From contig JALFCF010000001.1 of the NCBI GenBank assembly GCA_022771205.1, positions 130,663 through 194,662 of the forward strand: a DNA stretch of 64,000 nucleotides. The letters run 5' to 3'. A program made the translations under genes and the position numbers. The notes below the pieces were generated by a model. That model did not search any database. It was not told the DNA's origin and saw only the letters and a program-made list of their open reading frames with translations. Of this stretch, positions 5,659 through 57,892 are shown in pieces (positions within the stretch are counted from its first letter, which is position 1; each line of letters starts with the position of its first letter). This DNA is from Mycoplasmatota bacterium. Lineage in GTDB: Bacteria > Bacillota_I > Bacilli_A > RF39 > UBA660.

Positions 5659-5767
5659 TTATATGTATAATAGTATTAAAATTGCATATAAATATAGTGT
5701 TACATATTTACAAAAATACCCAAATGTGGTATTATTAATATGTAATTAAATTCCGTTTTAACGGGGG

Positions 5768-5793
5768 AAAAAGGAACTGAGGTTCCTTTTTTC
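5768..5793 (+). terminator. Rho-independent terminator (aaaaaggaac-tgag-gttccttttt + T-run); a second hairpin lies at 5809-5831 (gatagttaa/ttaactatc)
   Basis: Perfect 10-bp inverted repeat followed by a T-tract, seen directly in the sequence. Confidence 0.55.
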
Positions 5794-5889
5794 TTGTAAC
5801 AAAAAAATGATAGTTAAGGGATTAACTATCATCTTAATTATCAATAATTATGGAGTTTATTAATATTTATTTGATTTGATAAAATATCA

Positions 5890-6570
5890 TTATATTTTAT
5901 TAATCTTGGAATATATTTTATTATTTTCTAATGAAATATTATCTATAGACCATTTTTCTAACTGTTTTTTTGTGAAAACCATATGAGTAATAGTATCAAT
6001 GGTTTGCATAAATTTTTTACAGGATTCTACAATTAAATTTAATTCATTCTCCATTTCTAATGCATAAATCATATCAGCTTGTCCACTTTTTGTTTTTTTA
6101 ATTCTTAATTGACAAAAATTTACTGAGAATTTTAATGTTGTATGATTAATATTTTGCCAAGAATTACGAAGTGTATTTTTCAAAAGTGACATTTCTTCAT
6201 TTTTCTTTTTTAAAAAATAATAATCAGGATCATATGATTCAATTACATTTAGATTCAAATTCATGTCGTTGACACATTGAAAATAAAATTTGTCAAATAA
6301 GGAATCATTGCTAAATTTTATATTTTCAATACTATTAATTAAAATGGATGCTTGAGATTTTGCCCAAAATAATGAAGAGTATAATTTATAAGCATTTTCA
6401 TTTTTTAAAGAGAAATAATTTGGCAATTCTAATAAAAAAGAAATTATGGAACTAGTAAATAAAGCCAGCGTTATTTCATATATTTTTCCTTTATCTAATA
6501 TAAATAAAAATGGTAAAGATATTATTTCAATCATAAAGCTTATTATTAATATGTTTCTATGTGCTTTCAT
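5890..6570 (-). CDS. Hypothetical membrane protein (2 N-terminal TM helices)
   Basis: The ORF track gives 5890..6603. An internal ATG at 6570 is preceded by 'aaggagg' at 6-nt spacing and is the likelier start (MKAHRNILIISF...). No recognisable domain. Confidence 0.4.
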   Translation of the reverse strand: MKAHRNILIISFMIEIISLPFLFILDKGKIYEITLALFTSSIISFLLELPNYFSLKNENAYKLYSSLFWAKSQASILINSIENIKFSNDSLFDKFYFQCVNDMNLNLNVIESYDPDYYFLKKKNEEMSLLKNTLRNSWQNINHTTLKFSVNFCQLRIKKTKSGQADMIYALEMENELNLIVESCKKFMQTIDTITHMVFTKKQLEKWSIDNISLENNKIYSKINKI

Positions 6571-6660
6571 TGTTGCCTCCTTTTTTGTCATATATTCTAT
6601 CATATTTTTTATTAAATGTATAAAAGAATAGTAATAATTGAATAAATTTCATAAATTTTA

Positions 6661-6711
6661 GGTACCCAAAAGTTCACATAAAAAATTGGGTACTCAATTA
6701 GGTACCCAAAG
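6661..6711. repeat. att/arm-site-like short repeats: ggtacccaaa at 6661 and 6701 (direct) and ttgggtac at 6686 (inverted)
   Basis: Three copies of an 8-11-nt site within 50 bp, ~230 bp beyond the 3' end of the integrase gene. Confidence 0.35.
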
Positions 6712-6823
6712 TATTAAAAATAGTCATTATATAGTTAAAAGCGAATATTAAGAAAAGTCTTATTTTATAAGGATTTATATAATATTCATAAATTTGCGTG
6801 ATTGATTTTATTTGGCCCCTGAA

Positions 6824-6857
6824 GAGAGTGATGAAACAATATCACTCTCATTTTTTG
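6824..6857 (+). terminator. Orphan plus-strand Rho-independent terminator (gagagtgat ... atcactctc + T6)
   Basis: 9-bp stem + T-run. No plus-strand CDS ends here, so it may be the terminator of a gene 3' end displaced by element integration, or of an sRNA. Confidence 0.45.
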
Positions 6858-6936
6858 TTGTAATTACAGGGACTTTTGTGATTTTAATTATTTTAAAAAT
6901 GCTTTTACATTAACCACTAGGTAATGTAGAAGTTTT

Positions 6937-8043
6937 TTAACTTAAATTATCCATAGTTTTTACAATCTCATCCATCTTATTTTTAAATAGGTGAGAATAG
7001 GTATTTAGTGTTTCATCAATCTTTGCATGACCTAAATATTTAGCAACAATCATAATACTTGCACCATTATTAATTAAAACTGAAGCACAAGAGTGTCTAA
7101 AGTCATGAATTCTTATTTGCTTAACACCAGATTCTTGAATATATTTATTTTTCTGATGTCTTAATATATGAGCTGATAAAGGTTCTTTATCTCCAAATAC
7201 AAACCATTTTTGATTAAAGCCGTATTGTTTCTTATCTCTTAAATATAATTCGTGTAGATCTTTCATGACTCTTTCTGGAACTGGTAATGTTCTAACACTA
7301 GTTCTAGTTTTGGGAGTAGTAACATAACATTTACCTCCATCTCCCTCTTGAACGACATTTTTAACCACTGAGAGCTCTCTATTAAGGAAATCTATATTAT
7401 CTCAAGATAGACCTCTTAATTCGCCTCTACGAAGACCACAAAAGTATAATACTTCGAATAATGCTTTCCATTTAATATCATCTATTACTGATAAGAATTG
7501 TTTAAATTCTTCCCATGTATAGAATTGCATTTCTTTTGGTGGTTTGTTTGGATTACTAAACTTTTCCATTTTATTATAAATAGAAGTGAAGTTGAAATCA
7601 TGCCATTTAGTTCCATAGTTAAGAATAGTTTTTAATAATTTATAATATCCATTCTTAGTTTTATCAGCAAGATTTAATGCACCGATTCTTTTTCTCCAAG
7701 TAATATAGTGTTCTAACTTAATATCTTTAATCTTTAATTCATAGAATTCACTTAATTCTTTAATATTAACTCTATATGTTCTTAAAGTAGATGTTTTAAC
7801 TTTATCTTTCTTATATTCATAAAATTCTTCATATAGTTGTTTAAAAGTCATTCCAGTAACATTTATTTCTTTAGTTTCATATCCGACTAAGGAGTCTCTT
7901 TCAGCTTTCAAAGCTTCATTTCTAGTCATATAGCTTCTTGACATATATGGTTTGGTTCTCCCATAAACCTTTATTTTGTCATAAAAATACCATCTTCTAC
8001 CATCTTTGGTAGCTCTTTCTTTTGGTAACTGTAATACAGCCAT
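6937..8043 (-). pseudogene. int: Tyrosine recombinase/integrase (Tn916/phage-Int-like) interrupted by an in-frame TGA at 7402-7404
   Basis: The two ORFs 7402..8043 and 6937..7368 are in the same frame. Read-through gives ...GLRRGELRGLS*DNIDFLNRELSV...KTRTSVRTLPV...HDFRHSCAS...LGHAKIDETLNTYSHL. These are box I and box II with the R..HxxR..Y catalytic residues. The TGA sits exactly where the conserved Trp of 'LxW.DID' is expected. Confidence 0.7.
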
Positions 8044-8152
8044 TTTATTTATACCTCCTTGTTTTGCTATATCGAGTTACCTCTTATACAACTCTAATAT
8101 AGCATATTTTTGTGCATAAAAAAACTCTAGAAAAATCTAGAGTATTAAAATA

Positions 8153-8347
8153 TTATTTGTTCCATCCCAGTTTATATATTAAGTAGCCACTAACTAATGC
8201 TATTACTATCCCAATGATTATCTCAATTATTATTTTTAAAATTCTTTTATTATTTTTATTATCATTATTATTGTTATTGTTATTGTTTCCTATAATCGTA
8301 TTCTTGATTTTATTATTATTTCCAATATCAATTTTCATTATTATCAC
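8153..8347 (-). CDS. Small Asn-rich protein with C-terminal TM helix
   Basis: 64-aa ORF. The poly-Asn is encoded by an attgtt/aat simple-sequence tract (8265-8290). Low complexity. Confidence 0.3.
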   Translation of the reverse strand: MIIMKIDIGNNNKIKNTIIGNNNNNNNNDNKNNKRILKIIIEIIIGIVIALVSGYLIYKLGWNK

Positions 8348-9006
8348 CTATAATACTTTCTTTTATTGAATTATTGTCACCAATATGAGTTGATTTGTCA
8401 TAAATAATTGTTATTAAGGACTTAGTTACCTTTTCTTCTTTTATCTTATCCTTAAAATCAATATAATACTCATCTAAATTCCCGTATTGTTTTTCTAATT
8501 CCTTAAATATACTTAATAATTTAGATCTTATTGCACCAATAATATTTGTGTATGCATATAAAGATAAATCAGTGTAGGCATTTATTATTTCTCCGTTGAT
8601 GCATGATATTTCTTGGGCTAATAAAACATTCATAGCTAGCGAAAGATGATGACTGTCGTTTTCCTTTTCTGCAATTGCCATTTGTTCTAATTTAAAAACA
8701 CCATCTTTAATTTTAATATTTGAATAATCCTTTATATATTCTGGCTTTAATGGAAGAGGTTGATTTGTTCCTTGAATTCCATTAAAAGCACTTCCTATTA
8801 TATAAGAGCCCTTAAGATTAATGCTTACTATTCTATAATCTGGTATATCATCATCTTTATCATAACCATTAATCTCGTTTGATAACCAATTTTTAATTTT
8901 TTTATCTTTTATATTTTCCAATAATAAATCTAAAATTTCTAGTGCTTGTTCAACATTTATATTGCTATTAATTAAATCAATTATTACTTTGCTTCTTTTT
9001 TGCATT
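8328..9006 (-). CDS. Hypothetical protein
   Basis: Likely start is ATG 9006 (MQKRSK...), just after the stop of the upstream ORF and a 'ggtgg' RBS. No recognisable domain. Confidence 0.35.
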
Positions 9007-9018
9007 TTTACCACCAAC

Positions 9019-9390
9019 TTACTTGTTTTCATTGCCAATAGTGCTTTCATCAAATGTATTATTATTACCTATAGTTATCGAATTGTCTATATATATATTA
9101 TTATTTGCATTAGTATTTAAAGCATAATTACTTTTTTGTAGTGTTAATTTGTAAAAACTACATATATCACCATGACCATTATTAAATTTACTTTCAATTA
9201 TTGTATAGTTTTCTTCTGCACCATTTGGTAGCTTTCTAATTATTTTTTGACCTTCAATTATAGGGGTTGATATGTCAGTTATTGTAAATCCTGTTTTACC
9301 AAACAATCCTTTTAAATCTTTAATTTTTTTATTATTTTCATCACATAATTCAACTATTTCTGTTGGAAAATGTTCTAATATGTCTCTCAT
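9019..9390 (-). CDS. Hypothetical protein
   Basis: 123-aa ORF ending in IGNNN/IGNEN repeats. RBS 'ggaggag' lies upstream. Confidence 0.35.
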   Translation of the reverse strand: MRDILEHFPTEIVELCDENNKKIKDLKGLFGKTGFTITDISTPIIEGQKIIRKLPNGAEENYTIIESKFNNGHGDICSFYKLTLQKSNYALNTNANNNIYIDNSITIGNNNTFDESTIGNENK

Positions 9391-9443
9391 ATCTCCTCCT
9401 TCAAATATTTCATATATATTATATCATATTTATTAAGAATTGA

Positions 9444-9680
9444 TTATTTCGAGATACTTATTATTTTTTCTAATCTGTCAATGTCTATTTTTAAAACATC
9501 AACAACAGCTTGCATTGGTAAGTCATTTCCAGGAATAAAGTATTCTTCACTTATTAACTTATTCTTTATTTGCTTTTTAATATCTAATGCTTTATTCCTA
9601 CCACAGTGTAGTAGTTTCATTAAATCTGTTAAATTGCACCATTGTTTAGTTATTATTTTCATTATTTCTTCTGCACTCAT
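9444..9680 (-). CDS. Small DNA-binding protein, possibly excisionase-like
   Basis: 78 aa, sits with the int-proximal small genes. Only weak resemblance to Tn916 Xis-type proteins. Confidence 0.3.
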   Translation of the reverse strand: MSAEEIMKIITKQWCNLTDLMKLLHCGRNKALDIKKQIKNKLISEEYFIPGNDLPMQAVVDVLKIDIDRLEKIISISK

Positions 9681-9693
9681 AATTAAACCTCCC

Positions 9694-10110
9694 TTATTTA
9701 AAACTATCTATTATTGATTGCATTTCTGCTTGTTCTTCTGGTGAAGCTTCTTCGTTTGAGATCTTCTGTCCGTTCCAATATCCATCAACATAGAGTGGTG
9801 GCTCCTTTTTTATTTCAATTTCATTAATTTTTAAAACATGAATATAGTTTTGTCTATGACCATTTTTATCAATATATCCCTTTGGTATACCTTCGACATA
9901 AACATCTTTTCCAATTCTTAAATTAATTTTGTAAGAATATTCAATATACATTCTTGCACTAAAAAAGGATAGGTTGTTCCTATCCATTCCATTTTTATCT
10001 TTGTATATTTCTTTTTGACATATATCAAACCAGATATAGTCTTTATCAATTTTATCTCTAATACTAGTTATATATCCATGATATTTTATATAATCAACTA
10101 AATCTTTCAT
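9694..10110 (-). CDS. Hypothetical protein (possible OB-fold)
   Basis: 138 aa. No firm motif. Confidence 0.3.
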   Translation of the reverse strand: MKDLVDYIKYHGYITSIRDKIDKDYIWFDICQKEIYKDKNGMDRNNLSFFSARMYIEYSYKINLRIGKDVYVEGIPKGYIDKNGHRQNYIHVLKINEIEIKKEPPLYVDGYWNGQKISNEEASPEEQAEMQSIIDSFK

Positions 10111-10224
10111 ACCGAAACCTCCTTATACCTTTTACTAAGGCCATTGTATAACTATTATATTTATATATTATCTTTGTTTATTATGTTAGATTATTAATTC
10201 TATAATGATAGAATTATTATTCTC

Positions 10225-10494
10225 CTATGTTAGATATTTATTTCTAATGTATATTTTTCTTCTAAAACTTTTTGGATGTTCTACATTAATATATCCTTTA
10301 TCAACTAATGTTCTAATAAGACTAGAAATTGTTCTAGTAGAACATTTAAGCTTTTCAGCATAATATTTGTTAGATCCAAAAGCATATCCTTTTTGATTTG
10401 AATTAGAGAGTAGTAGAGTAAAAAAGACAATTGTGCTTTTACTCAAATTGTCTTCTAATAAATCATAATATAGTTTTCCATGATTCTTACTCAT
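10225..10494 (-). CDS. Winged-helix/HTH protein resembling the N-terminal domain of replication-initiator/replisome-organiser proteins
   Basis: '...AEKLKCSTRTISSLIRTLVDKGYINVEH' is a typical HTH_36/RepA-N-like helix-turn-helix. Confidence 0.4.
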   Translation of the reverse strand: MSKNHGKLYYDLLEDNLSKSTIVFFTLLLSNSNQKGYAFGSNKYYAEKLKCSTRTISSLIRTLVDKGYINVEHPKSFRRKIYIRNKYLT

Positions 10495-10699
10495 TTCTTA
10501 ATCGCTTCCTTTCTTTTCTAATTGCTTTTGATATAACCATATCTTTAAAAGCATCAGCTGATTCAATCATGTATTTAACTAACGAATCTTCTATACACAT
10601 TACTAAAAAGTCATTAATACTAATTCCTCTAGAATTAGCTTCAGATTTTACTAAATCAAAAACATCTTGTCTTATTCTTAATAAAAATTTATGCATCAT
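10487..10699 (-). CDS. Arc/MetJ-type ribbon-helix-helix DNA-binding protein
   Basis: 'KFLLRIRQDVFDLVKSEANSRGISINDFLVMCIEDSL' matches the Arc-like RHH pattern (beta-strand K/R-x-L-R-I + two helices). Confidence 0.5.
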   Translation of the reverse strand: MMHKFLLRIRQDVFDLVKSEANSRGISINDFLVMCIEDSLVKYMIESADAFKDMVISKAIRKERKRLRNE

Positions 10700-10713
10700 T
10701 TATTTATACCTCC

Positions 10714-11133
10714 TTAATCATCATAATCATATTTTGAAAACTTTTTCTTAAATTTATTTAGTGCTTTATTATCATTTGGATTAGTTAATCTATCTATTTC
10801 TAAATCAGAATAAAATTGTTCTAATAACTGAGTAGAATAATACGATTTAGAATATAATTTATCTAATAGAGCATTATTCTTATCTAACATTCTAGATAAC
10901 TTAATATTATTATTACCAGCTGTAACTAATTGAGTAACTGCTTCTGAAAATGAAATGTTACATTTATTTGCATATTCGGTAATAATGCATTCTACATCTA
11001 ATGATATAGAAATATGTTTCTTTAATTTTCTCGTTTTTAAACCTCCTTTCTGTGCCACTAAGTGGACAATATGTAGCCACCAAATTAATTTTTTTATTGA
11101 AAATAATATAAGAGCATAAGAGGTTGATATCAC
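10714..11133 (-). CDS. Hypothetical protein (possible RHH/CopG-like N-terminal region); start codon uncertain
   Basis: Internal 'aaaggagg' RBS at 11036-11043 lies inside the tracked ORF and no canonical start follows it. Flanked by operator-like palindromes. Confidence 0.25.
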   Translation of the reverse strand: MISTSYALILFSIKKLIWWLHIVHLVAQKGGLKTRKLKKHISISLDVECIITEYANKCNISFSEAVTQLVTAGNNNIKLSRMLDKNNALLDKLYSKSYYSTQLLEQFYSDLEIDRLTNPNDNKALNKFKKKFSKYDYDD

Positions 11134-11634
11134 TACAATAAAAAAGCCTTATTACATAAGACTTCTGTGTGATATCAAACTTATTTTGCACTTGCAAAAT
11201 TGTCCCACTAAAGTGGACGTTTATTCTTAATAACCCCTTTACTTTCGATAGAAAAGTATGGACGAAACTATGGGCTATTTTCTTTTGCTTTCATGTATTC
11301 ACCTCCTAACTAGTGTGATAATAAAAAAAGAAGATATTTCTATCTCCTTCGAATATTTTTTCTAATTATACTCATTTTAATGCAATTTGCTTACTAATGA
11401 AAGAATGATTTAAAAGTGTAATTTTTTGATTAAAATAATGTGTTATACAAAATGTATTTTTTAATGGAAATTATCTTAGTTTACTAAAATTTACCATTTC
11501 TTAATATCATTTACAATACCTATTTAAATTCTCATTTTTTTCTCATTTAAAATATTATTAATTATCTTAACTTATTATATTTTTTTACAATACCATATTA
11601 ACACAGAGATATTGTGCCTTTCAATTGTCCTTTT

Positions 11635-11690
11635 CCGTACTTTTTTCGTACCTTTTTCGTACTTTTTATGTACTATTTCCGTACTTTTTA
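11635..11690. repeat. Five tandem 11-bp repeats (c)cgtac(c)ttttt with exact 11-bp phasing (units at 11636, 11647, 11658, 11669, 11680); iteron- or operator-like
   Basis: Seen directly. The helical-turn spacing puts all units on one DNA face. Confidence 0.6.
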
Positions 11691-11939: not shown

Positions 11940-13418
11940 ATGTCTCAAATTATAAAAGAAGATATTTTATGGAAAGCAGCTGAAAAGCTAAGAGATAAAT
12001 GTGATCCAGCTGATTATAAAAACGTTGTACTTGGTTTGGTATTTTTGAAATATGTAAGTGATAAATATGCTGCTAAGTATAAAGAACTTATAAAAGTAGG
12101 AGACGGTAGAGAAAATGATGATGATTATTACATCCAAGATCATGTATTTATTGTTCCTAAAGAAGCCTTATGGAATGAAATTGCTAAACATTCTAAACAG
12201 GACGATTTAGGTCAAGTAATAGATGAAGCATTTGTAGCACTAGAGAAAAATAATAATCAATTAAAAGGGATTTTACCAAAGACATATTCTAAAAGTGATT
12301 TGGACAAAACAGCATTGGGAGAACTAGTTGATTTCTTTTCTAATAATCTTAATATGGAAGATGCAGATGGTGATTTCTTTGGACAAGTTTATGAATATTA
12401 TATTGGTGCATTTGCAAAATATATTCCTACAAAAGGTGGAGAGTTTTTTACACCTAAATCTGTAGTTGAATTAATGGTTGATATATTAGAACCATATAGT
12501 GGTAGAGTATATGACCCGTGCTGTGGATCTGGTGGTATGTTTGTTCAATGTTCTAAGTTTGTTAAAGAGCATAGGGGAAATGTTGATAATATCGCAATCT
12601 TTGGTCAAGAATCAAATCCAGGTACATGGAAAATGGCTAAAATGAATTTAGCTATTAGAGGTCTAGAAGGAAATCTTGGAGAAAAGAATGCAGATTCATT
12701 TACAGAAGATCTTCATAAAACTTTAAGAGCTGATTATATAATTGCTAATCCACCATATAACCTAAAAGAATTTTGGAAACCATCTTTAGAAGGGGATCCG
12801 AGATGGGTATTCGGTAAGCCTGATATAAAGAATGGTAATTATGCTTGGTTATCTTTAATGTATGCTAAATTAGCTCCAAAAGGAAAAGCAGCAATACTTA
12901 TGCCAAATGGAGCTACTGCAAGTAATACAACAGCTGACTATAAAATAAGAAAAGAGATGATTGAATCTGGTAAAGTTGAGGCAATACTTGCTTTACCAAA
13001 TAAATTGTTCTCTAATGTTAGCATTTCAGTTCAATGTTGGATATTAAAAAAAGATAAAACAAATAAAGATATTTTATTTATTAACGCAGATTCTATGGGT
13101 AAACTTCTTAATAGAAAAATAAGAGTTTTAGAAGAAGATGATATAAATAAGATAGTTAAAGCATATAAGGATTTTGAAAATGGTTCTTTAGAAGATATAG
13201 CAGGTTTTTGTAAAGCTGCTGATATAGAAGAAATTAAATCTAAAGATTATTCTTTAAATCCTGGTCGTTATGTTGGAGCTGATTCTTCTCAACAATTATC
13301 TGAAGAAGAAATAAAAGAAGAAATAGCTAAAACATCTAAAGAATTATTCGAATTAATGAAGGAGGGTAGAGAACTAGAAGATAAAGTTAAAGAAATTTTA
13401 GAAGAAGAAATGAAATAG
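11940..13418 (+). CDS. hsdM: Type I restriction-modification system methyltransferase subunit
   Basis: RBS 'aaggagg'. N6-adenine methyltransferase motifs including 'IIANPPYN'. 492 aa is typical for HsdM. Confidence 0.9.
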   Translation: MSQIIKEDILWKAAEKLRDKCDPADYKNVVLGLVFLKYVSDKYAAKYKELIKVGDGRENDDDYYIQDHVFIVPKEALWNEIAKHSKQDDLGQVIDEAFVALEKNNNQLKGILPKTYSKSDLDKTALGELVDFFSNNLNMEDADGDFFGQVYEYYIGAFAKYIPTKGGEFFTPKSVVELMVDILEPYSGRVYDPCCGSGGMFVQCSKFVKEHRGNVDNIAIFGQESNPGTWKMAKMNLAIRGLEGNLGEKNADSFTEDLHKTLRADYIIANPPYNLKEFWKPSLEGDPRWVFGKPDIKNGNYAWLSLMYAKLAPKGKAAILMPNGATASNTTADYKIRKEMIESGKVEAILALPNKLFSNVSISVQCWILKKDKTNKDILFINADSMGKLLNRKIRVLEEDDINKIVKAYKDFENGSLEDIAGFCKAADIEEIKSKDYSLNPGRYVGADSSQQLSEEEIKEEIAKTSKELFELMKEGRELEDKVKEILEEEMK

Positions 13419-13851
13419 TGTTAACTATGTGATTTTGCATTTTATCATCATGAACATTTAATTCGACAGATTCAAGGGCTTCTTTATTTATTGAATCAAA
13501 TATTGTTCCGACAGAAGATGTAATGAATTGGTTCGTGTTTGATAATAGTAAATAATATAGATACTTGTATGAAATAGATTTTGGATGTATTGCTGCTAAA
13601 CCTCTACCGATTGCAATTCTCGTTGGCGAAATATTAATATCTCCAACAGGAGCTCTAACAGTAAATAATAAATCATTACTTTGAGCTTCTTTATTCCAAT
13701 TTGTAGTCCATGTATCAAAAGATGGGTATTTATCACCAAAAGTTGTTCTTCCTTGTAAAAACGGCATACCATCCCCATTATTATTGTAGTATTTTGAAGA
13801 TGGTGATTGTCCCATTGTAATAATTGCAATTTCATTCAACTTTTTAAGCAT
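13387..13851 (-). CDS. Silent hsdS target-recognition-domain cassette 'a', ending in the central conserved repeat (QNHIVNTI)
   Basis: TRD-like sequence. Its 3' end carries the 17-nt inverted copy (13415-13431) of the hsdS central repeat. Confidence 0.55.
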   Translation of the reverse strand: MLKKLNEIAIITMGQSPSSKYYNNNGDGMPFLQGRTTFGDKYPSFDTWTTNWNKEAQSNDLLFTVRAPVGDINISPTRIAIGRGLAAIHPKSISYKYLYYLLLSNTNQFITSSVGTIFDSINKEALESVELNVHDDKMQNHIVNTISFLLLKFL

Positions 13852-14308
13852 ATAATCCGCTCCTTTTAATGTTAACTATGTGTTGTTGCTCGTTTATAGA
13901 AGGAACATTTATTTGCCAATCTAGAAGTGCATCTTTATTGCCTCTTGGCATTTTTGTTCCTTTACATGATGCAACATAATAGTTTATAAAACCATCATTT
14001 GTTAATGAATAATAAAGATATTTATTTAATATGATGTTATTGTTTGCACGCAAAACAATAACATCATTTGAACATCCTCCATCAAATTTTGAAAACCAAA
14101 TTTTTTTAAAGTAAGGTCTTATATTTGATAATAATATATCATTAATTTTAAATGATGTTACGTTACCTTTTGGAAGCGATGTTGCACTGCAAATGCCTTG
14201 GAAATTTAGCAACATATTTTCTGTACTAATATAGCTATTATTATCTAATAAATCACTATTAATTTTTTCTGATATTATTTTACAAACGTCATTTATTTTC
14301 TTTTTCAT
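13844..14308 (-). CDS. Silent hsdS target-recognition-domain cassette 'b' with an hsdS-like N-terminus, ending in the central repeat (NEQQHIVN)
   Basis: Begins 'MKKKINDVCKI', like HsdS N-termini. Its 3' end carries the 19-nt inverted repeat 13870-13888. It is head-to-head with hsdS, 6 nt apart. Confidence 0.55.
   Translation of the reverse strand: MKKKINDVCKIISEKINSDLLDNNSYISTENMLLNFQGICSATSLPKGNVTSFKINDILLSNIRPYFKKIWFSKFDGGCSNDVIVLRANNNIILNKYLYYSLTNDGFINYYVASCKGTKMPRGNKDALLDWQINVPSINEQQHIVNIKRSGLYA
13870..13888. repeat. Inverted copy of IR-A (tgttaactatgtgttgttg) at the 3' end of cassette b; a further copy is at 13415-13431
   Basis: Exact reverse complement of 14780-14798. Confidence 0.7.
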
Positions 14309-14314
14309 ATTAAC

Positions 14315-15451
14315 ATGAACTATAAAATTAAAGATGTATGCGAAGTTACTTCAAGTAGAAGAATATTTGCAAGAGAATATAAAACAAGTGGAATACCTTT
14401 CTTTAGAAGTCAAGAAATTATTGAACTTTCTACAAAAGGTAAAACAATACCGACCATTTATATATCAAATGATAGATATAACGAATTGCTAACTCGGGGT
14501 TTAAACGTTCCGACAAAAGGAGACATTCTAATATCTGCTATAGGAGCAAATAGAGGATATCCATGGAACGTAAGTTTTGATGGCTTTTACTTTAAAGACG
14601 GTAATGTGATTTGGCTTAGAAATTTTTCGAATCAATGTGATTCAAAATATTTAACTTATGCCTTATCTACAAATAAATATATAAGTATGTTACAAACTGC
14701 ATCAGAGCATTCTGCTCAAGGAGCAATTACTTTAGATTTAATAAAAAACATAGAAATACATATACCTCCCATCGAAAAACAACAACACATAGTTAACACT
14801 ATAGGAAGTATTGATGATTTAATTGAAAATTATAATGATCAAATAGCCAAAATATGCAACATATTATCGACCACATTAAATAAATATAATGAAATCACAT
14901 ATATATCTTATTATGAACCAGAAATAATAAAATCAGGGATTAATACATTTGATAAAGAAAAGATATATTTAGATACATCATCAATTAATGGTATAAATAA
15001 TTTGTCGAATGGAGAAGTTATTACCTATAGTAAAAGACCATCAAGAGCAAATATGCAACCTATTAATAATTCAGTTTGGTTTGCAAAAATGAAAGGTTCT
15101 GAAAAAATTCTTTTATTAACTGAAAATGATAATGATATTGTCAATAATAATATTTTATCAACTGGTTTTTTAGGAATTAAAGCTTCGGGCAAGTTCCCAT
15201 TATCTTTATTGTTTTCAATTATAATATCTAATAATTTTAAAATACAAAGAGATCTTAATTCGGTAGGAACAACAATGGCTGGCATTAATAATGAAACATT
15301 TGTTAAAATACTTGTTCCAAAACTTTCTGAGGAAGAAATTAAATATTATGACCAAAAATACAAATATTTAGTGATGAAATTATCTTATTTAAGAAGACAA
15401 ATAAAATTATTAAATGATGTTAAACAAAACTTATTAAGCAAATATTTTTAA
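14315..15451 (+). CDS. hsdS: Type I RM specificity subunit (two TRDs, central and C-terminal conserved coiled-coil repeats)
   Basis: 378 aa. Layout is TRD1, then 'IPPIEKQQHIVNTIGSIDDLIEN', then TRD2, then 'LSEEEIKYYDQKYKYL...'. Confidence 0.85.
   Translation: MNYKIKDVCEVTSSRRIFAREYKTSGIPFFRSQEIIELSTKGKTIPTIYISNDRYNELLTRGLNVPTKGDILISAIGANRGYPWNVSFDGFYFKDGNVIWLRNFSNQCDSKYLTYALSTNKYISMLQTASEHSAQGAITLDLIKNIEIHIPPIEKQQHIVNTIGSIDDLIENYNDQIAKICNILSTTLNKYNEITYISYYEPEIIKSGINTFDKEKIYLDTSSINGINNLSNGEVITYSKRPSRANMQPINNSVWFAKMKGSEKILLLTENDNDIVNNNILSTGFLGIKASGKFPLSLLFSIIISNNFKIQRDLNSVGTTMAGINNETFVKILVPKLSEEEIKYYDQKYKYLVMKLSYLRRQIKLLNDVKQNLLSKYF
14780..14818. repeat. Recombination repeats inside the hsdS central region: IR-A caacaacacatagttaaca (14780-14798) and IR-B ttaacactataggaagtattgatgat (14793-14818)
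   Basis: Exact inverted copies lie at 13870-13888 (19 nt) and 13415-13431 (17 nt) for IR-A, and at 16888-16913 (26 nt) for IR-B. Confidence 0.7.
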
Positions 15452-15494
15452 ATTGAAATTTATATAATATCTCCTTAGAAAGGAGATTTTTATT

Positions 15495-16295
15495 ATGAAA
15501 GATTTTAAAACATATTTAGTTCATCAAAATTTGTCGAAGAATACTATCAAATCTTATCAATCATCTGTTAATTATTTTTTTAAAGACTTTGAAGAAATCA
15601 ACAAGCAAAATTTATTAGCCTTTAAAGCAACTTTAGTTGATAGCTATAAGGGGAAAACAGTAAATTTAAGAATTCAAGGAATAAATAAATATCTAGAGTA
15701 TATAGGAAAAGATAAATTAAAACTAAAATATATTAAAATTCAACAAAAAACATATTTAGAAAATGTAATAAGTGATGCTGATTATGAGTTTTTAAAAAAT
15801 AAATTATGGAAACAAAAAAACTACGAATGGTATTTCGTAGTAAGATTTCTTGGTGCAACAGGTGCTAGAGTATCAGAACTTATACAATTTAAATATGAAC
15901 ATCTTATTAGAGGGTATATAGACTTATATACTAAATCTGGAAAAATTAGAAGAATATTCATACCTAAAAAACTAAGAATAAAAGCAATAAATTATTATGA
16001 TTCCATTAATAGAACATCTGGATATTTATTTCTTAATAAAGATGGAAAACAAATAACTACTCGTGGTATTGCTCATCAATTAAAAGCTTTAGCTAAAAAA
16101 TATAAGATGAATTTAAATGTTGTATATCCACATTCTTTTAGACATCGATTTGCTAAAAACTTCTTGGAAAAAAGAAAAGATATTGCTTTACTTGCAGATC
16201 TTATGGGTCATGAATCTATTGAAACAACTAGAATTTATTTAAGAAAAACAAGTGAAGAACAGCAAGAAATTGTTGATAGTGTTATTGATTGGTAA
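15495..16295 (+). CDS. Tyrosine site-specific recombinase (Xer/shufflon-type) embedded in the hsdS cassette region
   Basis: Catalytic signatures 'TGARVSEL', 'HSFRHRFA', 'GHESIETTRIY'. RBS 'aaaggag'. Confidence 0.8.
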   Translation: MKDFKTYLVHQNLSKNTIKSYQSSVNYFFKDFEEINKQNLLAFKATLVDSYKGKTVNLRIQGINKYLEYIGKDKLKLKYIKIQQKTYLENVISDADYEFLKNKLWKQKNYEWYFVVRFLGATGARVSELIQFKYEHLIRGYIDLYTKSGKIRRIFIPKKLRIKAINYYDSINRTSGYLFLNKDGKQITTRGIAHQLKALAKKYKMNLNVVYPHSFRHRFAKNFLEKRKDIALLADLMGHESIETTRIYLRKTSEEQQEIVDSVIDW

Positions 16296-16913
16296 AATAT
16301 TTAATCAGTAGCCTATCTTTAATACATTTAAGAAGGGAAACCTTCTTTTTTAATAATACAATTTCCTTAAATATATTATTAAAATATTCTTTATCTTCTT
16401 CAGTTAAGTTAATTGTTTTCAAAAATGGTATAGATTTTGAAGCATGTAATATAGTTGTCCCTTGAGACATATCTCTTATTATAGACTGGTTTAAATTACT
16501 ATTAAGTGAATAATATACTAATCCTTTGTCTTTTTCGTTACATAATACTTTATATAATCCAGAAGAATAAGTTCCTTTTAGACCTATTGCATTTCTACCA
16601 GGTGCCCCGTCCATTGCAATTAATATATCATTTTCATCAGCGAATTTATTGCACAAATCCTTATCAACATATGTATTTGATAGTGATAATAAATCTCCAA
16701 CTCTAATATAATTAATAAAATTATCAGAAAAATAGTCTTTATAATTTAATGATCCTAATTCATTTCCTTTTTCTAATTTTGCAATTGTTGATAAATCTAT
16801 CAATTCTTTGTCTTTATTTAATCTATTAATTTTTATTAGTCCTATTTTATTTAAATTTTCTATTATTTTATTATGATTCTCTATTAGATCATCAATACTT
16901 CCTATAGTGTTAA
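16282..16913 (-). CDS. Silent hsdS cassette 'c': central repeat (NTIGSIDDLIENH...) + alternative TRD2 + C-terminal conserved repeat
   Basis: The minus-strand reading frame is open from the IR-B copy through to 16282. The tracked ORF (TTG start at 16803) is its downstream part. Confidence 0.55.
16888..16913. repeat. Inverted copy of IR-B at the 5' end of cassette c
   Basis: Exact reverse complement of 14793-14818. Confidence 0.7.
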
Positions 16914-16985
16914 TTATGTTTAAATTAGCCTGAGATATCGAAAAAACGCTAATTGTATGTTATAATTGAATGGATAGGTGATAGT

Positions 16986-19900
16986 ATGGTTTATGAGAGT
17001 GAAATTGAAGAAGCAATAATACAATTGTTACAAAATAAAAATTATGAATTTATTGATGAAAATGATAGTTGGATTTCTGATAGAAAATTAGACGAATTTA
17101 TTAATAAAGATTTATTATTAGACTGTTTATCTAGAATTAATGGTACAAATGATTTTGAAATATTAAATGAAGCTGTTAATACAATAATGAGACTTGAAAA
17201 TCCGTCTTTATTTGAAAGAAATTTTGCATTTCATAAATATTTAATAGATGGAATTACTATTGAATCAAAGAATTATGTTGTAAATCCTTTGATTAGATTT
17301 ATTGACTTCGAAACACCTGAAAATAATGTTTTCCAAGTATGCCATCAAGTTAAATTTAATGAAGGTAGAAGTAATAGAATTCCAGATGTAATTATTTATA
17401 TTAATGGTATTCCTTTAGTTGTTATGGAACTAAAGAATTTTAGTGAAGACGCAACAAAAGCTATGCTTGAAGATGCATATGATCAATTAGGCGAATCAAG
17501 TGAACATAATGGATATAGATATGACATACCAACTTTATTTAATTATAATGCTTTCTTAGTAATATCTGATGGAGTAACTACTAAAGTAGGTACTTTGACT
17601 TCTAAGATAGATAGATTTAATGAATGGAAAAGCGTGGCAGGTGAAAAAGGATACGATGATTCTTGCGTAACTCAATTAAATATTCTTATAGATGGACTAT
17701 TTGAACAACATAGATTATTAGATGTGATAAAAAATAATATTTTCTTTATTCAAGATAAAAATAATAAACCAGTTAAAATTATGTCACAATATCATCAATA
17801 TTTTGGTGTTAATAAAGCATATGATTCTATATTAAAAACAATAAAACCTGAAGGTTCTGGTAAAGCTGGTATTATTTGGCATACTCAAGGTTCTGGTAAA
17901 TCATTTTCAATGGTAATGTTAGCACATAGATTGTTGATATCTCCACAATTAAATGTACCAACAATAGTACTATTAACTGATAGAATAGATTTAGACGATC
18001 AATTATATAAAACATTCTTTAGTGCTAGACAATATTTAAAATGTGAACCAGTTGTTGCTACTTCAAGAGAAGATTTAGTAAAAAAATTATCTCAAATAAA
18101 GCAAGGTGGAGTAATACTAACAACTGTTGGAAAATTTGATAAAGAGAATCTTCCTAAAAACGAAAGAACTAATATTATTGTAATGACTGATGAGGCACAT
18201 AGAGGTCACTATGGCTTATATGAAACAGTTCATTATGAAAAGAATAAAGAAACAGATGAAATGGAAGCAGTATTTAAATATGGCGTTGAAAAATATATAA
18301 GAGATGCGTTACCAAATGCTACATTTATAGGTTTTACAGGTACTCCTGTTTCAACTAAAGATAAACAAACTACTGATATATTCGGTGATATTATTGATAC
18401 ATATGATATGACTCAGTCTGTAATTGATGGTTCAACTGTTAAATTATATTATGAATCAAGATTAGCTAAAGTATGGACAGATGAAAATATACTTCATGAG
18501 ATAGATAATTACTATAATGATTTAGAAAAGTCAGGTGACGCAGATTCTAATTCAATTGAAAGATCTAAAGCTGAAATGTCTAAGATTAAGGTTATTTTAG
18601 AAGAAGATGATATGATTAATCTTTTTGCTAATGATATCATTGAACATTATGAAGAAAGAAAAGGTTTCTTAAACGGAAAAGCTATGATTGTTTGTCAAAC
18701 TAGACATGCTGCTGCAAAATTATATAAAAGAATAATAGAATTAAGACCTGAATATGAAAAATCAACTATTCTAGTTGTAACTGAATCAAATAAAGATACA
18801 GCTGAAGAAAGAGAATTATTTGGCAACTCCGATTATAGAAAAGAATTATCGGAGGAATTTAAGAAAGAAAATTCTAAATATAAAATTGCTATTGTATGTG
18901 ATATGTGGCTTACTGGTTTTGATGTTCCAGATCTAGATGTTATGTATTTTATTAAGAGATTAAAATCTTATAATTTAATGCAAGCAATTGCTAGAGTAAA
19001 TAGAGTTTTCCCTGGTAAACCATATGGACTTGTTGTTGATTATATTGGACTTGATAAAGCATTAGATGAAGCATTAACTGAATATACTGATAGAGATAGA
19101 GAAAACAATTGCCAAGATATTAAAGAAGAAATATATACTATATTAAAAGAAAAATTATCAGTATTAAATGAAATGTTCTACAAAGTTGATAAATCAAAAT
19201 TCTTTAGTAGTGATGCATTAACAAGATTTACTGCTATACAAGATGGTACTCAATTTGTTTTAGAAGATAAAAAACGTGAAGATCAATTTATGAGTGATTT
19301 ATCTATAACAATAAAGCAAGCCTTTGTAGTATGCGGTGGTATTGCTACACAAGATGAAAAGAATGATGTTTATTATTACTTATCTATTAGAAGTTATATT
19401 CTTAAACTTAGAATTAGAGTTGGAACTGTATCAACAAGAGAAATGAATGATTATGTTTCTAATTTGTTAGCTGATGCAATTAAAGGTGATGAAGTTAAAG
19501 TTCTAACAAAAGGTGCTGATGCTGTTAATGTAATAGATTTGCTAAGTACAGAAAAAATAGAAGAATTAAGAAAGAAAAATCCACCTTTGGTTTTTGTTGA
19601 AATTGTTAAGCGACTACTTGAAAGAGCAATTGCTGAATCAAGGAAAAATAACTTCTTTAAATCCCAAGAATATTCGAAGAGATTAAGGAAAATTCTTGAA
19701 AAATATAATGATAGAGATAATCTATTTACTCCAGAAACAACAATTGTTGATTTAGTTAATTTTGCTGGTGAAATGGTTAGTGATGAAAAAGAAGCAAATA
19801 AATTAGGTATATTTGGACGTGAAAGAGCATTTTATGATGCATTAATTAGAGATAAATCAGCACAAGAATTATTAAATGATGAGACTTTAAAATTAATTGC

Positions 19901-20087
19901 TCATGAATTAAAAGAAGTGGTAGAGGAATATGCACTAACTGATTGGTCTGCAAAAGAAGCAACTCGTGCTAGAATGAGAACCAAAATTAAGGAATGCTTA
20001 AGAAAATATAATTATCCACCAGAATATACTCAACAAGCAGTGGATGATGTTATTAAACAAGCAGAATATATTATGAATGATAATTAG
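16986..20087 (+). CDS. hsdR: Type I restriction enzyme R subunit
   Basis: Motifs 'TDEAHRG' and 'QGSGKS', ~1030 aa. Start was chosen at ATG 16986 after an 'aggtga' RBS; the track starts at 16953. Confidence 0.9.
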   Translation: MVYESEIEEAIIQLLQNKNYEFIDENDSWISDRKLDEFINKDLLLDCLSRINGTNDFEILNEAVNTIMRLENPSLFERNFAFHKYLIDGITIESKNYVVNPLIRFIDFETPENNVFQVCHQVKFNEGRSNRIPDVIIYINGIPLVVMELKNFSEDATKAMLEDAYDQLGESSEHNGYRYDIPTLFNYNAFLVISDGVTTKVGTLTSKIDRFNEWKSVAGEKGYDDSCVTQLNILIDGLFEQHRLLDVIKNNIFFIQDKNNKPVKIMSQYHQYFGVNKAYDSILKTIKPEGSGKAGIIWHTQGSGKSFSMVMLAHRLLISPQLNVPTIVLLTDRIDLDDQLYKTFFSARQYLKCEPVVATSREDLVKKLSQIKQGGVILTTVGKFDKENLPKNERTNIIVMTDEAHRGHYGLYETVHYEKNKETDEMEAVFKYGVEKYIRDALPNATFIGFTGTPVSTKDKQTTDIFGDIIDTYDMTQSVIDGSTVKLYYESRLAKVWTDENILHEIDNYYNDLEKSGDADSNSIERSKAEMSKIKVILEEDDMINLFANDIIEHYEERKGFLNGKAMIVCQTRHAAAKLYKRIIELRPEYEKSTILVVTESNKDTAEERELFGNSDYRKELSEEFKKENSKYKIAIVCDMWLTGFDVPDLDVMYFIKRLKSYNLMQAIARVNRVFPGKPYGLVVDYIGLDKALDEALTEYTDRDRENNCQDIKEEIYTILKEKLSVLNEMFYKVDKSKFFSSDALTRFTAIQDGTQFVLEDKKREDQFMSDLSITIKQAFVVCGGIATQDEKNDVYYYLSIRSYILKLRIRVGTVSTREMNDYVSNLLADAIKGDEVKVLTKGADAVNVIDLLSTEKIEELRKKNPPLVFVEIVKRLLERAIAESRKNNFFKSQEYSKRLRKILEKYNDRDNLFTPETTIVDLVNFAGEMVSDEKEANKLGIFGRERAFYDALIRDKSAQELLNDETLKLIAHELKEVVEEYALTDWSAKEATRARMRTKIKECLRKYNYPPEYTQQAVDDVIKQAEYIMNDN

Positions 20088-20095
20088 GAGATAGT

Positions 20096-21019
20096 ATGAA
20101 TATAGGTAAACTAAAAGAAGTTGATATTAGAAATTTATGGAAACATGAGCAATATGATTTTTCTGAATGGCTATCGCATGATGAGAATATAGAGGAACTA
20201 AATGATATATTAGGCTTAACTTTAACTGATGTATCTAAAGAAGTGTATGTTGGTTCTTATAGATGCGATTTAGTGGCTGTTGATGAGTCAACTGGAATAA
20301 AAGTAATAATTGAAAATCAACTTGAATCATCTAACCATGATCATTTAGGCAAAATTATTACATATGCCTCAGGGTTAAATGCTCAAGTTGTAGTGTGGAT
20401 TGTAACTCATGCAAAAGAAGAACATAAAAGTGCAATTGAATGGTTAAATAATAATACTAATGGAGATGTTAACTTTTTCTTAATAGAATTACATGCATAT
20501 AAAATAGGTGATTCATTACCAGCTCCTTACTTTGAGGTAGTAGAAAAGCCAAATGATTTTATAAAAAATACTAAAGTAAATAGTGATAAATCAGAACTTA
20601 ACAAATCTCAATCAGAGAGGTTAGAATTCTGGAATCAGTTCAATGATGTTTTAATAGAAAAGGGGAAACCATTTAATGCAAGAAAAGCTACAACAGACCA
20701 CTGGTATGATGTTGCTATAGGAACAAGTGCAGCTCACATAGGTATTACTTTGGTTAATAAAGAATCTTATATTGGAGTAGAATTCTACATAAATGATGAT
20801 AAAGAAATGTTCGATAAATTATTAGAAAAACGAAGCATAATTGAAGAGGAATTAGGATTTAAATTAGATTGGCAAAGATTAGAAAATAGAAGTGCTAGTA
20901 GAATTAAATACTATATTAAAGGTTTAAATTTTGATGATCATTCAAATTATGATGAATTAATAGACAAATCAATTACTGCTGCTACAAAAATGAGAGACGT
21001 ATTTAAAAAGTATATTTAA
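20096..21019 (+). CDS. PD-(D/E)xK nuclease-like N-terminal domain with a DUF4268-like C-terminal region, of the kind often found beside Type I RM loci
   Basis: 'CDLVAVDESTGIKVIIENQLESSNHDHLGKIITY' fits the D...E-x-Q/K + 'GQhhxY' restriction-endonuclease-fold motif. Gene follows hsdR by 8 nt. Confidence 0.45.
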   Translation: MNIGKLKEVDIRNLWKHEQYDFSEWLSHDENIEELNDILGLTLTDVSKEVYVGSYRCDLVAVDESTGIKVIIENQLESSNHDHLGKIITYASGLNAQVVVWIVTHAKEEHKSAIEWLNNNTNGDVNFFLIELHAYKIGDSLPAPYFEVVEKPNDFIKNTKVNSDKSELNKSQSERLEFWNQFNDVLIEKGKPFNARKATTDHWYDVAIGTSAAHIGITLVNKESYIGVEFYINDDKEMFDKLLEKRSIIEEELGFKLDWQRLENRSASRIKYYIKGLNFDDHSNYDELIDKSITAATKMRDVFKKYI

Positions 21020-42880: not shown

Positions 42881-42964
42881 GGCATCTTTTTTTTGCGATT
42901 TGCAGAGAAAGTATAATTTTGTTATAATAAGTATAGAATGAATAATAGGAAGGAGACAAATTCA

Positions 42965-43125
42965 TTTAAGCGCCTGGACTTTAACAGTTGACGAGGACAG
43001 TAGTGATCGAAAGATTCGGCGGATGCTACTGCGGGGAAAAGTGCTTCGTTAGATATATAGCAAAAAGTAAAATTAACATTACAACAATATATATATCACC
43101 ACATATATTTTTAGCATGGAGGAAA
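42965..43125 (+). ncRNA. glmS ribozyme: glmS ribozyme (GlcN6P-responsive self-cleaving riboswitch)
   Basis: Core 'AGCGCC...GACGAGGA...CGAAAGAUUCGGCGGAUGC...' matches the glmS ribozyme consensus and sits directly 5' of glmS. Confidence 0.8.
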
Positions 43126-46225: not shown

Positions 46226-46302
46226 GGCGGCGTTGGTGAAGTGGTTAACACGCTGGTTTGTGGCACCAGTATGCATGAGTTCGATTCTCATACGCCGCCC
46301 CA
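46226..46302 (+). tRNA. trnH: tRNA-His (anticodon GUG), with the extra G-1 base and encoded CCA
   Basis: 8-bp acceptor stem including G-1:C73. Anticodon loop cttGTGgc. T-arm atgag-TTCGATT-ctcat. CCA at 46300-46302. Confidence 0.85.
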
Positions 46303-57772: not shown

Positions 57773-57892
57773 AACCTTATAAAGAGTAGTGGAGGGACTG
57801 GCCCAGTGATACTACAGCAACCTATTAAATTAGGTGCTAAAGCCTGCATGATAAGGAGCTAGAAAACAGGTTTCAACCTGTTTTTTTCTTTC
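57773..57892 (+). promoter_or_regulatory. S-box: SAM-I (S-box) riboswitch with terminator (aaacagg-tttcaa-cctgttt + T7)
   Basis: 'CUUAUAAAGAGUAGUGGAGGGACUGGCCCAGUGAUACUACAGCAACC...GGUGCUAAAGCCUGCAUGAUAAGG' matches the SAM-I consensus. Upstream of metK. Confidence 0.8.

Follow-up and report, generated by a model that had tools for sequence, protein, structure and literature searches.

A multi-cassette hsdS inversion switch, probably active, in a Type I restriction–modification operon of a gut Mycoplasmatota bacterium

Organisation of the hsd locus and its repeats

The window analysed here is a stretch of 64,000 nucleotides from a gut Mycoplasmatota metagenome-assembled genome (MAG; assembly GCA_022771205.1, contig JALFCF010000001.1). 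Database proteins identical to those of the window bear the source names Mycoplasmatota, Tenericutes or Ca. Faecimonas MAG. It contains a Type I restriction–modification (RM) operon in which one full specificity gene, hsdS, stands among three half cassettes of target recognition domains (TRDs) and a tyrosine recombinase gene, with hsdM and hsdR also present (Pfam, NCBIfam). Pfam searches gave the order hsdM, silent cassettes a and b, hsdS, recombinase, silent cassette c and hsdR, in agreement with a first-pass annotation made from the letters of the sequence; cassette c was recognised by its in-frame translation. Below, the inverted repeats (IR) that pair hsdS with cassettes a and b are called IR-A, the repeat that pairs it with cassette c is called IR-B, and the site within hsdS is called the hub. 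The features of the locus, in window positions, are as follows.

11940–13418, plus strand: hsdM, 492 aa; Pfam N6_Mtase (1.1e-96) and HsdM_N (4e-24)
13415–13431, minus strand: site a, core ATAGTGTTAACTAT (13415–13428) plus GTG; its 17 nt are complementary to 14786–14802
13432–13851, minus strand (open reading frame 13387–13851): silent TRD1 cassette a, 154 aa; Pfam Methylase_S (1.8e-11)
13866–13888, minus strand: site b, degenerate core TTAATGTTAACTAT (13866–13879); 13870–13888 is complementary to 14780–14798
13889–14308, minus strand (open reading frame 13844–14308): silent TRD1 cassette b, 154 aa; Pfam Methylase_S (2.3e-10)
14315–15451, plus strand: full-length hsdS, 378 aa; Pfam Methylase_S
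14789–14802, plus strand: hub recombination core in hsdS, ATAGTTAACACTAT
15469–15487, plus strand: hairpin with a T-run between hsdS and the recombinase, terminator-like
15495–16295, plus strand: tyrosine recombinase, 266 aa; Pfam Phage_integrase (4.8e-25); inside the IR-B segment
16282–16887, minus strand: silent TRD2 cassette c, recognised by translation, its own start codon absent
16888–16917, minus strand: site c; 16888–16913 is complementary to 14793–14818; core ATAGTGTTAATTAT (16904–16917), one mismatch
16958–16966: extended −10-like sequence of hsdR, TGTTATAAT, just past site c; a consensus match only
16986–20087, plus strand: hsdR, 1033 aa from the likely ATG at 16986 in a reading frame that opens at 16953; HSDR_N, SWI2_SNF2 and T1RH-like_C

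Within hsdS, TRD1 (14315–14779) is followed by a central helix that contains the hub site and then by TRD2 (14819–15448); an identical HsdS protein is named "restriction endonuclease subunit S" by NCBI (MCI6107220.1). The reading frame of cassette c extends from 16923 to 16282 on the minus strand (NTIGSIDDLIEN...KYFTNQ-stop) and encodes a TRD2 between a central helix and a C-terminal helix, its stop codon overlapping that of the recombinase by 14 nt. Because cassettes a and b are antisense to the operon and their frames run out into out-of-context tails, a reading of them as ordinary expressed half-HsdS genes was rejected. Both hsdM and hsdR (the latter scoring 512 bits against an NCBIfam cut-off of 285) lie outside all invertible DNA, and the TAG stop of hsdM (13416–13418) falls within recombination site a.

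For comparison, a scan of species-representative genomes yielded 17 loci with recombinases 62–87% identical to that of the window, and none above 87%. The hosts include Mycoplasmopsis iners, Mycoplasma procyoni, M. elephantis, Acholeplasma oculi and members of the Acholeplasmataceae, as well as MAGs of Bacilli, Clostridia and Cloacimonadota. Twelve of the 17 loci also hold hsdM and/or hsdR and follow the order hsdM, zero to two TRD1 cassettes, hsdS, recombinase, one or more TRD2 cassettes and hsdR. The abutment of the hsdM stop on site a is kept in L013, L015, L017, L018, L020 and L023 (L numbers denote the public contigs and loci compared).

Reading the sequence directly, we found that 14780–14798 is the exact reverse complement of 13870–13888 (19 nt), 14786–14802 that of 13415–13431 (17 nt), and 14793–14818 that of 16888–16913 (26 nt; IR-B, which extends to 107 nt at 71% identity). 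The exact copies listed in the first-pass annotation are thus present as described, save that 13415–13431 had been paired with 14780–14798, while its true partner is 14786–14802. All three repeats overlap one 14-bp core, ATAGTTAACACTAT, and sit within the codons of the hsdS central helix, where they encode its conserved motif QQHIVNTIGS. To the left of the core, the hub has the homology CAACAACAC in common with sites a and b; to the right, it has AGGAAGTATTGATGAT in common with site c. A 16-nt form of the core, ACATAGTTAACACTAT, occurs four times in the 64-kb window at up to two mismatches, each time at a repeat position, compared with an expectation of 0.22 copies in shuffled sequence, and none of 100 shuffles reached four.

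Inversion products in public assemblies

Public contigs were found via exactly the same recombinase, HsdM or HsdR, and the evidence for inversion products comes from metagenome assemblies. L002/L009 is identical to the window. An 82-kb contig (L001/L031), 99.3–99.9% identical to the window, carries the segment bounded by 14787/14853 and 16855/16919 inverted relative to hsdM and hsdR, and its hsdS, a called gene of 369 aa, consists of TRD1 joined to cassette c. L004, from a different sample, has both junctions the same as L001. The inversion at IR-B that had been predicted to swap TRD2 for c and to flip the recombinase is therefore seen in L001, L004 and L031.

The predicted exchange of TRD1 for a or b through IR-A is also found. 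In L003 the order is b (minus strand), TRD1 (plus strand) and a (plus strand) fused to TRD2, with a called hsdS gene of 361 aa; in simulation, this state lies two inversions away from that of the window. In L037 and L038, which are 97–99% identical to the window, the b/TRD1 segment is inverted, and at the expression site b is fused to a TRD2 cassette missing from the window. A natural product exists for each of the three repeat pairs. Both L037 and L038 have an extra TRD2 cassette (985–1560 in each) between the hub site and cassette c, and cassette content therefore varies among close strains.

The mapped junctions fall inside the repeats, which had been proposed as the crossover points. Arm mismatches bound the IR-B crossover to 14793–14818 and the three junctions of L003 to 14786–14798, 14780–14798 and 14786–14802. 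Use of site a is shown by L003 junctions J1 and J3; use of site b by L003 junctions J1 and J2 and by the inverted B segment of L037 and L038; and use of site c by the junctions of L001 and L004 and by contig breaks at 16888 and 16913. If one position serves all exchanges, the overlap of the crossover intervals, TTAACA at 14793–14798, would be the candidate strand-exchange region.

A lineage 99.7–99.9% identical to the window has A in place of G at 16887, a variant that lengthens the exact repeat of IR-B from 26 to 31 nt and is present in L001, L004, L032, L033 and L036.

With the four sites taken as recombination points, simulation reached 12 arrangements, or 8 if only flank-homologous pairs react. 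All six chimeric alleles of the expected 3 × 2 set are in frame in this simulation: TRD1+TRD2 (378 aa), a+TRD2 (361 aa), b+TRD2 (363 aa), TRD1+c (369 aa), a+c (352 aa) and b+c (354 aa). No more than three of these alleles have been seen in the background of the window or one nearly identical to it, in addition to b joined to a foreign TRD2. A search with the predicted b+c chimera as the query returned no exact b+c, a+c or b+TRD2 protein from the window strain. The same search returned two full-length HsdS proteins: P0047, with an N-terminal half ~98% identical to cassette b and another TRD2, and P0034, with a ~97% identical cassette c behind a different TRD1. The cassettes are therefore functional, exchangeable halves.

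The question of whether both orientations occur within one sample was approached through Logan contigs, which are built at k=31 with all 31-mers distinct, so that the 26-nt repeat alone cannot branch their graph. Several contigs 100% identical to the window nevertheless break at its edges: L010 and L012 end exactly at 14818, L005 covers exactly 14793–16913, L008 stops at 16913, L034 begins at 16888, and L007 (ERR11564834) begins at 14794, one base off the repeat edge. The three graph pieces of SRR14369186 (L012, L008 and L034) all break at repeat edges, SRR14369274 yielded L010 and L005, and SRR14369170, from the same SRR series, was assembled straight through the repeat (L002/L009). Breaks at the repeat edges would be expected of a segment with two alternative neighbours on each side; by this graph logic, the coexistence of both orientations is implied for SRR14369186 and SRR14369274.

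Alternatively, the arrangements could be differences fixed between strains or artefacts of assembly, and the locus would then be a fossil rather than a switch within populations. The data are indeed metagenome assemblies and not clonal cultures, the inverted contigs differ by 0.1–0.7% from the window and hence represent other strains, and the lineage with the 31-nt repeat (L033, L036) would break a k=31 graph even without a mixture. This explanation, however, has to accommodate window-identical contigs whose ends, in two samples, coincide exactly with the boundaries of the 26-nt repeat, as well as three recombinant states within ~1–3% divergence. Across related species, the two orientations are about equally frequent: of the loci whose orientation is legible, seven relatives and the window have the recombinase pointing the same way as hsdM/hsdR, and six have it pointing the other way. 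An artefact is further opposed by the L001 assembly, which was made at k=141 and spans the 26–31-nt repeat, and by L004, which repeats its junctions independently. We therefore consider fixed differences or artefacts very unlikely and read these contigs as states of an active switch.

The recombinase, its core site and the surroundings of the operon

According to Pfam, a SAM-like domain at the N terminus of the recombinase is followed by a C-terminal catalytic domain; the protein aligns over its full length with the XerA-like structure 4a8e and has R125, H213, R216, H239 and Y248 in place. The label "Xer-like" from the first-pass annotation holds for the fold and catalytic motifs and fails as a statement of orthology: the scores are far below the NCBIfam cut-offs for XerA (131 bits vs 220), XerC (96 vs 335) and XerD (93 vs 330), which rules out a Xer orthologue, and the protein passes no NCBIfam model. 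In a tblastn search of annotated plasmid records, it is 61.3% identical over residues 1–266 (E=3e-90) to WP_000651186.1 of S. dysgalactiae, the RefSeq "tyrosine-type DNA invertase PsrA". It is 82–85% identical to homologues from Mycoplasmopsis and Metamycoplasma (tblastn; 85% in Mycoplasmopsis bovirhinis and M. arginini), and its 90% cluster includes a Metamycoplasma subdolum protein. By sequence, it is better described as a putative PsrA-clade (clade 1) invertase; PsrA itself inverts hsdS in vitro and in vivo (PMC7096588, PMC4948785). The S. dysgalactiae PsrA locus (L030) carries the 27/28-nt and 18-nt repeats (IR2, IR3) of the S. agalactiae Sag515I inverton, which has been verified by experiment. 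The core motif of the window is absent from L030, ruling out one site identity across the whole PsrA clade.

Among the twelve related loci that also hold hsdM and/or hsdR, the same core-based repeats were found in all but two short contigs. We classified 55 sites from 18 loci as full, TRD1-type or TRD2-type. In TRD1-type sites the homology stops precisely where the core does on its 3′ side, in TRD2-type sites precisely where it does on its 5′ side, and the sole block common to all 55 is the 14-bp ATAGTT[A/G]A[C/T]A[C/T]TAT. The core centre occurs as TTAACA, TTGACA or TTGATA and is uniform inside each locus, as strand exchange would require. A literature search with the core sequence string gave nothing relevant.

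These site data bear on a second alternative, in which the cassettes are remnants of hsdS pseudogenes in decay, with repeats that reflect nothing but conserved coding of the central helix. The repeats do encode the conserved helix motif, a and b end in meaningless tails, and c has no start codon. Across the 55 sites, however, the synonymous positions of the core are almost invariant while the adjoining codons vary, and the core therefore acts as a DNA-level site and not as mere conserved coding sequence. The cassettes are moreover intact frames with no internal stops, near-identical halves occur in the full-length proteins P0047 and P0034, and the recombinant contigs already contradict decay. 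We give this alternative practically no weight.

Linkage, homology and the co-conservation of site and enzyme make the linked recombinase the most likely catalyst of the inversions. The inversions could instead be real yet carried out by RecA-type homologous recombination, or by a recombinase encoded elsewhere, with the linked enzyme dispensable or serving another role. In S. pneumoniae, inversions at 85- and 298-bp repeats continue without PsrA (PMC4948785, PMC6620402), and M. pulmonis uses the unlinked HvsR (PMC7672463). The embedding of IR-B in 107 nt of 71% similarity would likewise suit homologous recombination. The exact repeats, on the other hand, are just 17–26 nt long, and repeats of this length are a poor RecA substrate. 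TRD1-type and TRD2-type cassettes keep the same 14-bp core and lose homology on opposite sides of it, the core accompanies this recombinase clade even in distant taxa, and the crossover intervals have one 6-nt interval in common. The streptococcal PsrA locus, whose enzyme is 61% identical, has different repeats, which fits coevolution of site and enzyme. Another catalyst is accordingly improbable in our assessment, somewhat less so than fixed strain differences, and we retain the linked recombinase as the candidate enzyme.

In several relatives, the 3′ end of the recombinase gene (...EEQQEIVDTI.DW-stop) resembles the hsdS core site ATAGTTGATACTAT. Core-like spots of this kind lie at 7773–7788 in L018 and L021, at ~5363 in L015 and at ~7775 in L020, and the corresponding spot of the window (16262–16275) is more degenerate. 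The likeness could represent a relic site, a binding site or a coincidence.

As noted in the first-pass annotation, the ATG codons of cassette b (14308, minus strand) and hsdS (14315, plus strand) stand head-to-head only 6 nt apart, and GGAG, GAGG and AGGA are all absent from the 30 bases upstream of either start. The arrangement is conserved in the closer relatives L013, L015–L018, L022 and L029, with gaps of 2–7 nt (mostly 5–7) and no Shine-Dalgarno sequence. The distant relatives L023, L026, L027 and L028 have gaps of 14–33 nt, with Shine-Dalgarno-like sequences facing one or both cassettes. Cassette a has the Shine-Dalgarno sequence AAAGGAG 8 nt upstream of its ATG, within the tail of cassette b. 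A promoter scan yielded 45 sites compared with 45.8 in shuffles, that is, no enrichment. Only a promoter upstream of site a could serve hsdS whatever the arrangement, and co-transcription with hsdM is therefore the economical reading.

The 3′ arm of the hairpin between hsdS and the recombinase is the Shine-Dalgarno sequence of the recombinase, AAGGAG. The hairpin is kept in 12 loci, at equivalent positions in L013–L022 and L029, with compensatory changes in four of ten pairs. Plausibly, it would end hsdS transcripts and limit translation of the recombinase by burying this Shine-Dalgarno sequence.

Upstream of the RM locus (4135–11133), the genes form a defence-island and mobile-element context, with the following features.

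4135–5658: Abi_2 protein
6937–7368 and 7402–8043: tyrosine integrase in two open reading frames (catalytic part and SAM-like part), probably frameshifted
8328–9053: AbiTii
10225–10494: HTH_36/DnaD_N-like protein

Between the small minus-strand HTH_36/DnaD_N-like genes and hsdM lies an 11-bp tandem repeat (11631–11689, consensus TTTTCCGTACT, 5.4 copies) with a spacing of one helical turn. By its sequence, this array looks like iterons or a regulator-binding array of a mobile element carrying the RM system. On the other side of the operon, a DUF4268 gene (20096–21019) starts 8 nt after hsdR and accompanies it in all same-species contigs, L031–L036; no such neighbour of hsdR was detected in the related loci L013–L029. 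At Rfam gathering thresholds, nothing was found in the locus, and elsewhere in the window only a glmS ribozyme upstream of glmS (42958–43107), a SAM-I riboswitch (57774–57857) and tRNA-His (46227–46302). These are ordinary features, consistent with a chromosome of Firmicute/Mollicute lineage using genetic code 11.

Interpretation and comparison with known systems

We interpret the locus as an active multi-cassette hsdS inversion switch, or "epigenetic inverton", in a Type I RM operon of a gut Mycoplasmatota MAG, and put the probability of this interpretation at roughly 0.88. The locus combines five of the hallmarks by which invertons are recognised: hsdM and hsdR with at least two hsdS copies or fragments, repeats within hsdS, a local invertase, a reading frame that is kept, and both orientations detected.

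In the proposed mechanism, the hub site would recombine with three inverted partners, two upstream (core and left arm) and one downstream (core and right arm), with strand exchange probably occurring within the central (G)TTAACA(C). A reaction with a or b would replace TRD1; one with c would replace TRD2 and flip the recombinase gene. The six in-frame HsdS proteins could provide up to six specificities for methylation and restriction, which may correspond to six distinct methylation motifs, and a phasevarion effect might follow from them. The hsdS gene is probably read from the hsdM transcript, and the conserved hairpin probably keeps the level of recombinase, and hence the switching frequency, low.

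Several points weigh against this interpretation. The evidence consists of assemblies and not of experiment or reads, and catalysis by this particular recombinase is deduced from linkage and homology, while some hsdS inversions of S. pneumoniae persist without PsrA (PMC4948785, PMC6620402). The IR-A inversions in the same strain background come from a single contig, L003, and the b-expressing state from a strain only 97–99% identical to the window. TRD2 and cassette c have zero Pfam matches at E<0.01, and a convincing promoter or Shine-Dalgarno sequence for hsdS was not found. Finally, position 16887/14819 in L001 and L004 has the hsdS-type base at both junctions, an outcome not expected of one reciprocal exchange between the window's own sequences; the oddity is most simply a polymorphism of the lineage in which IR-B is lengthened to 31 nt.

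A more specific design may be contemplated, although we consider it rather unlikely. One full site in hsdS would act as the single hub, and its partners would be left-arm-only (TRD1) or right-arm-only (TRD2), an asymmetry that would favour productive inversions and disfavour deletions between directly repeated silent sites. The recombinase would flip with the TRD2 segment behind a terminator hairpin that buries its Shine-Dalgarno sequence, making switching orientation-dependent and self-regulating. The asymmetry of the sfx sites in the R64 shufflon has a comparable effect, limiting unproductive events. In that shufflon, the tyrosine recombinase Rci acts on several short, partly conserved sfx sites to produce alternative pilV C-termini. 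Its target is thus the C-terminus of pilV and not hsdS, and its recombinase and sites are unrelated to those of the window, so that "shufflon" could serve here as a descriptive analogy only.

The contigs indicate that uncultured gut Mycoplasmatota switch their Type I specificity through DNA inversion, and public metagenome assemblies, which capture several switch states, offer cheap, culture-free detection of active invertons. The compact, conserved 14-bp core is a candidate site for a widespread Mollicute/Firmicute branch of PsrA-like invertases. This enzyme branch occurs in veterinary mycoplasmas such as M. agalactiae, where roles are described as unaddressed; the role of the linked "int" gene of M. 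agalactiae, for example, was described as still unaddressed (PMC9465063). The system would be expected to diversify restriction of phages and plasmids, and possibly gene regulation. Such loci also fragment assemblies, yield spurious "plasmid" records and confound methylation-based strain binning.

Inverting hsdS genes have been documented in M. pulmonis, S. pneumoniae (SpnD39III, with six alleles and PsrA/CreX), B. fragilis, L. monocytogenes, S. suis, E. faecalis, T. denticola and S. agalactiae, and surveys have described hundreds of loci and six invertase clades, including clade-1 loci in Tenericutes (PMC7672463, PMC7394358, PMC7383803, PMC9881135). The specific 14-bp core, and a single-hub layout that passes both TRD1 and TRD2 swaps through one site, were not found described in the literature.

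The closest parallels are SpnD39III/cod (ivr) of S. pneumoniae with PsrA (CreX) and Sag515I of S. agalactiae with SaiA, which likewise have one expressed hsdS and silent partial copies with the invertase among them (PMC4190663, PMC4948785, PMC7672463). They also resemble the window in reaching six in-frame alleles through repeats inside hsdS and in the size of the recombinase (266 aa; saiA, 798 bp). The streptococcal gene order, however, is hsdR-hsdM-hsdSA-psrA-hsdSB-hsdSC, whereas in the window hsdM is followed by the silent TRD1 cassettes and then by hsdS, and hsdR comes only after the invertible segment. In the streptococci, inversion runs through three distinct pairs of repeats (in pneumococcus, 15, 85 and 298 bp long) that are unrelated in sequence to ATAGTTAACACTAT, whereas the window has one hub for all exchanges.

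Overlapping repeats with a common core, as in the window, are present in Tde35405VII of T. denticola (TdiA), namely IR2, ATAATTGTTATTAT (14 bp), and IR1, TTGTTATTATGAGAAGTT (18 bp). The merged IR2/IR1 matches the window site at 14 of 22 positions without gaps, and IR2 is co-extensive with the 14-bp core; this likeness is statistically weak, as 40 of 2000 shuffles do as well. The positional resemblance of the window site to the T. denticola and S. agalactiae repeats is accordingly weak and only suggestive. T. denticola also has half-size secondary hsdS cassettes, and its inversions are experimentally verified (PMC7672463), but each of its two cassettes can exchange only the 3′ TRD, so that there are three alleles.

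E. faecalis loci of the T8 type (hsdM, hsdSA, efiA, hsdSB, hsdR) are ordered as the window is: the invertase gene is flanked by two hsdS copies in opposite orientation, and hsdR closes the operon (PMC7672463). They differ in having two full-length hsdS genes, four alleles, other repeats and the clade 4 enzyme EfiA, whereas the window has two extra upstream half cassettes and an enzyme that matches the PsrA clade instead. The HvsR loci of M. pulmonis and the hsd clusters of M. agalactiae and M. bovis are likewise Type I systems of Mollicutes with site-specific hsdS inversion; in M. pulmonis, however, HvsR is unlinked and belongs to clade 6, and two full hsdS genes flank hsdR and hsdM. Overall, the locus belongs to the well-described class of inverting, phase-variable Type I RM systems (Huang et al. 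2020; Atack et al. 2020).

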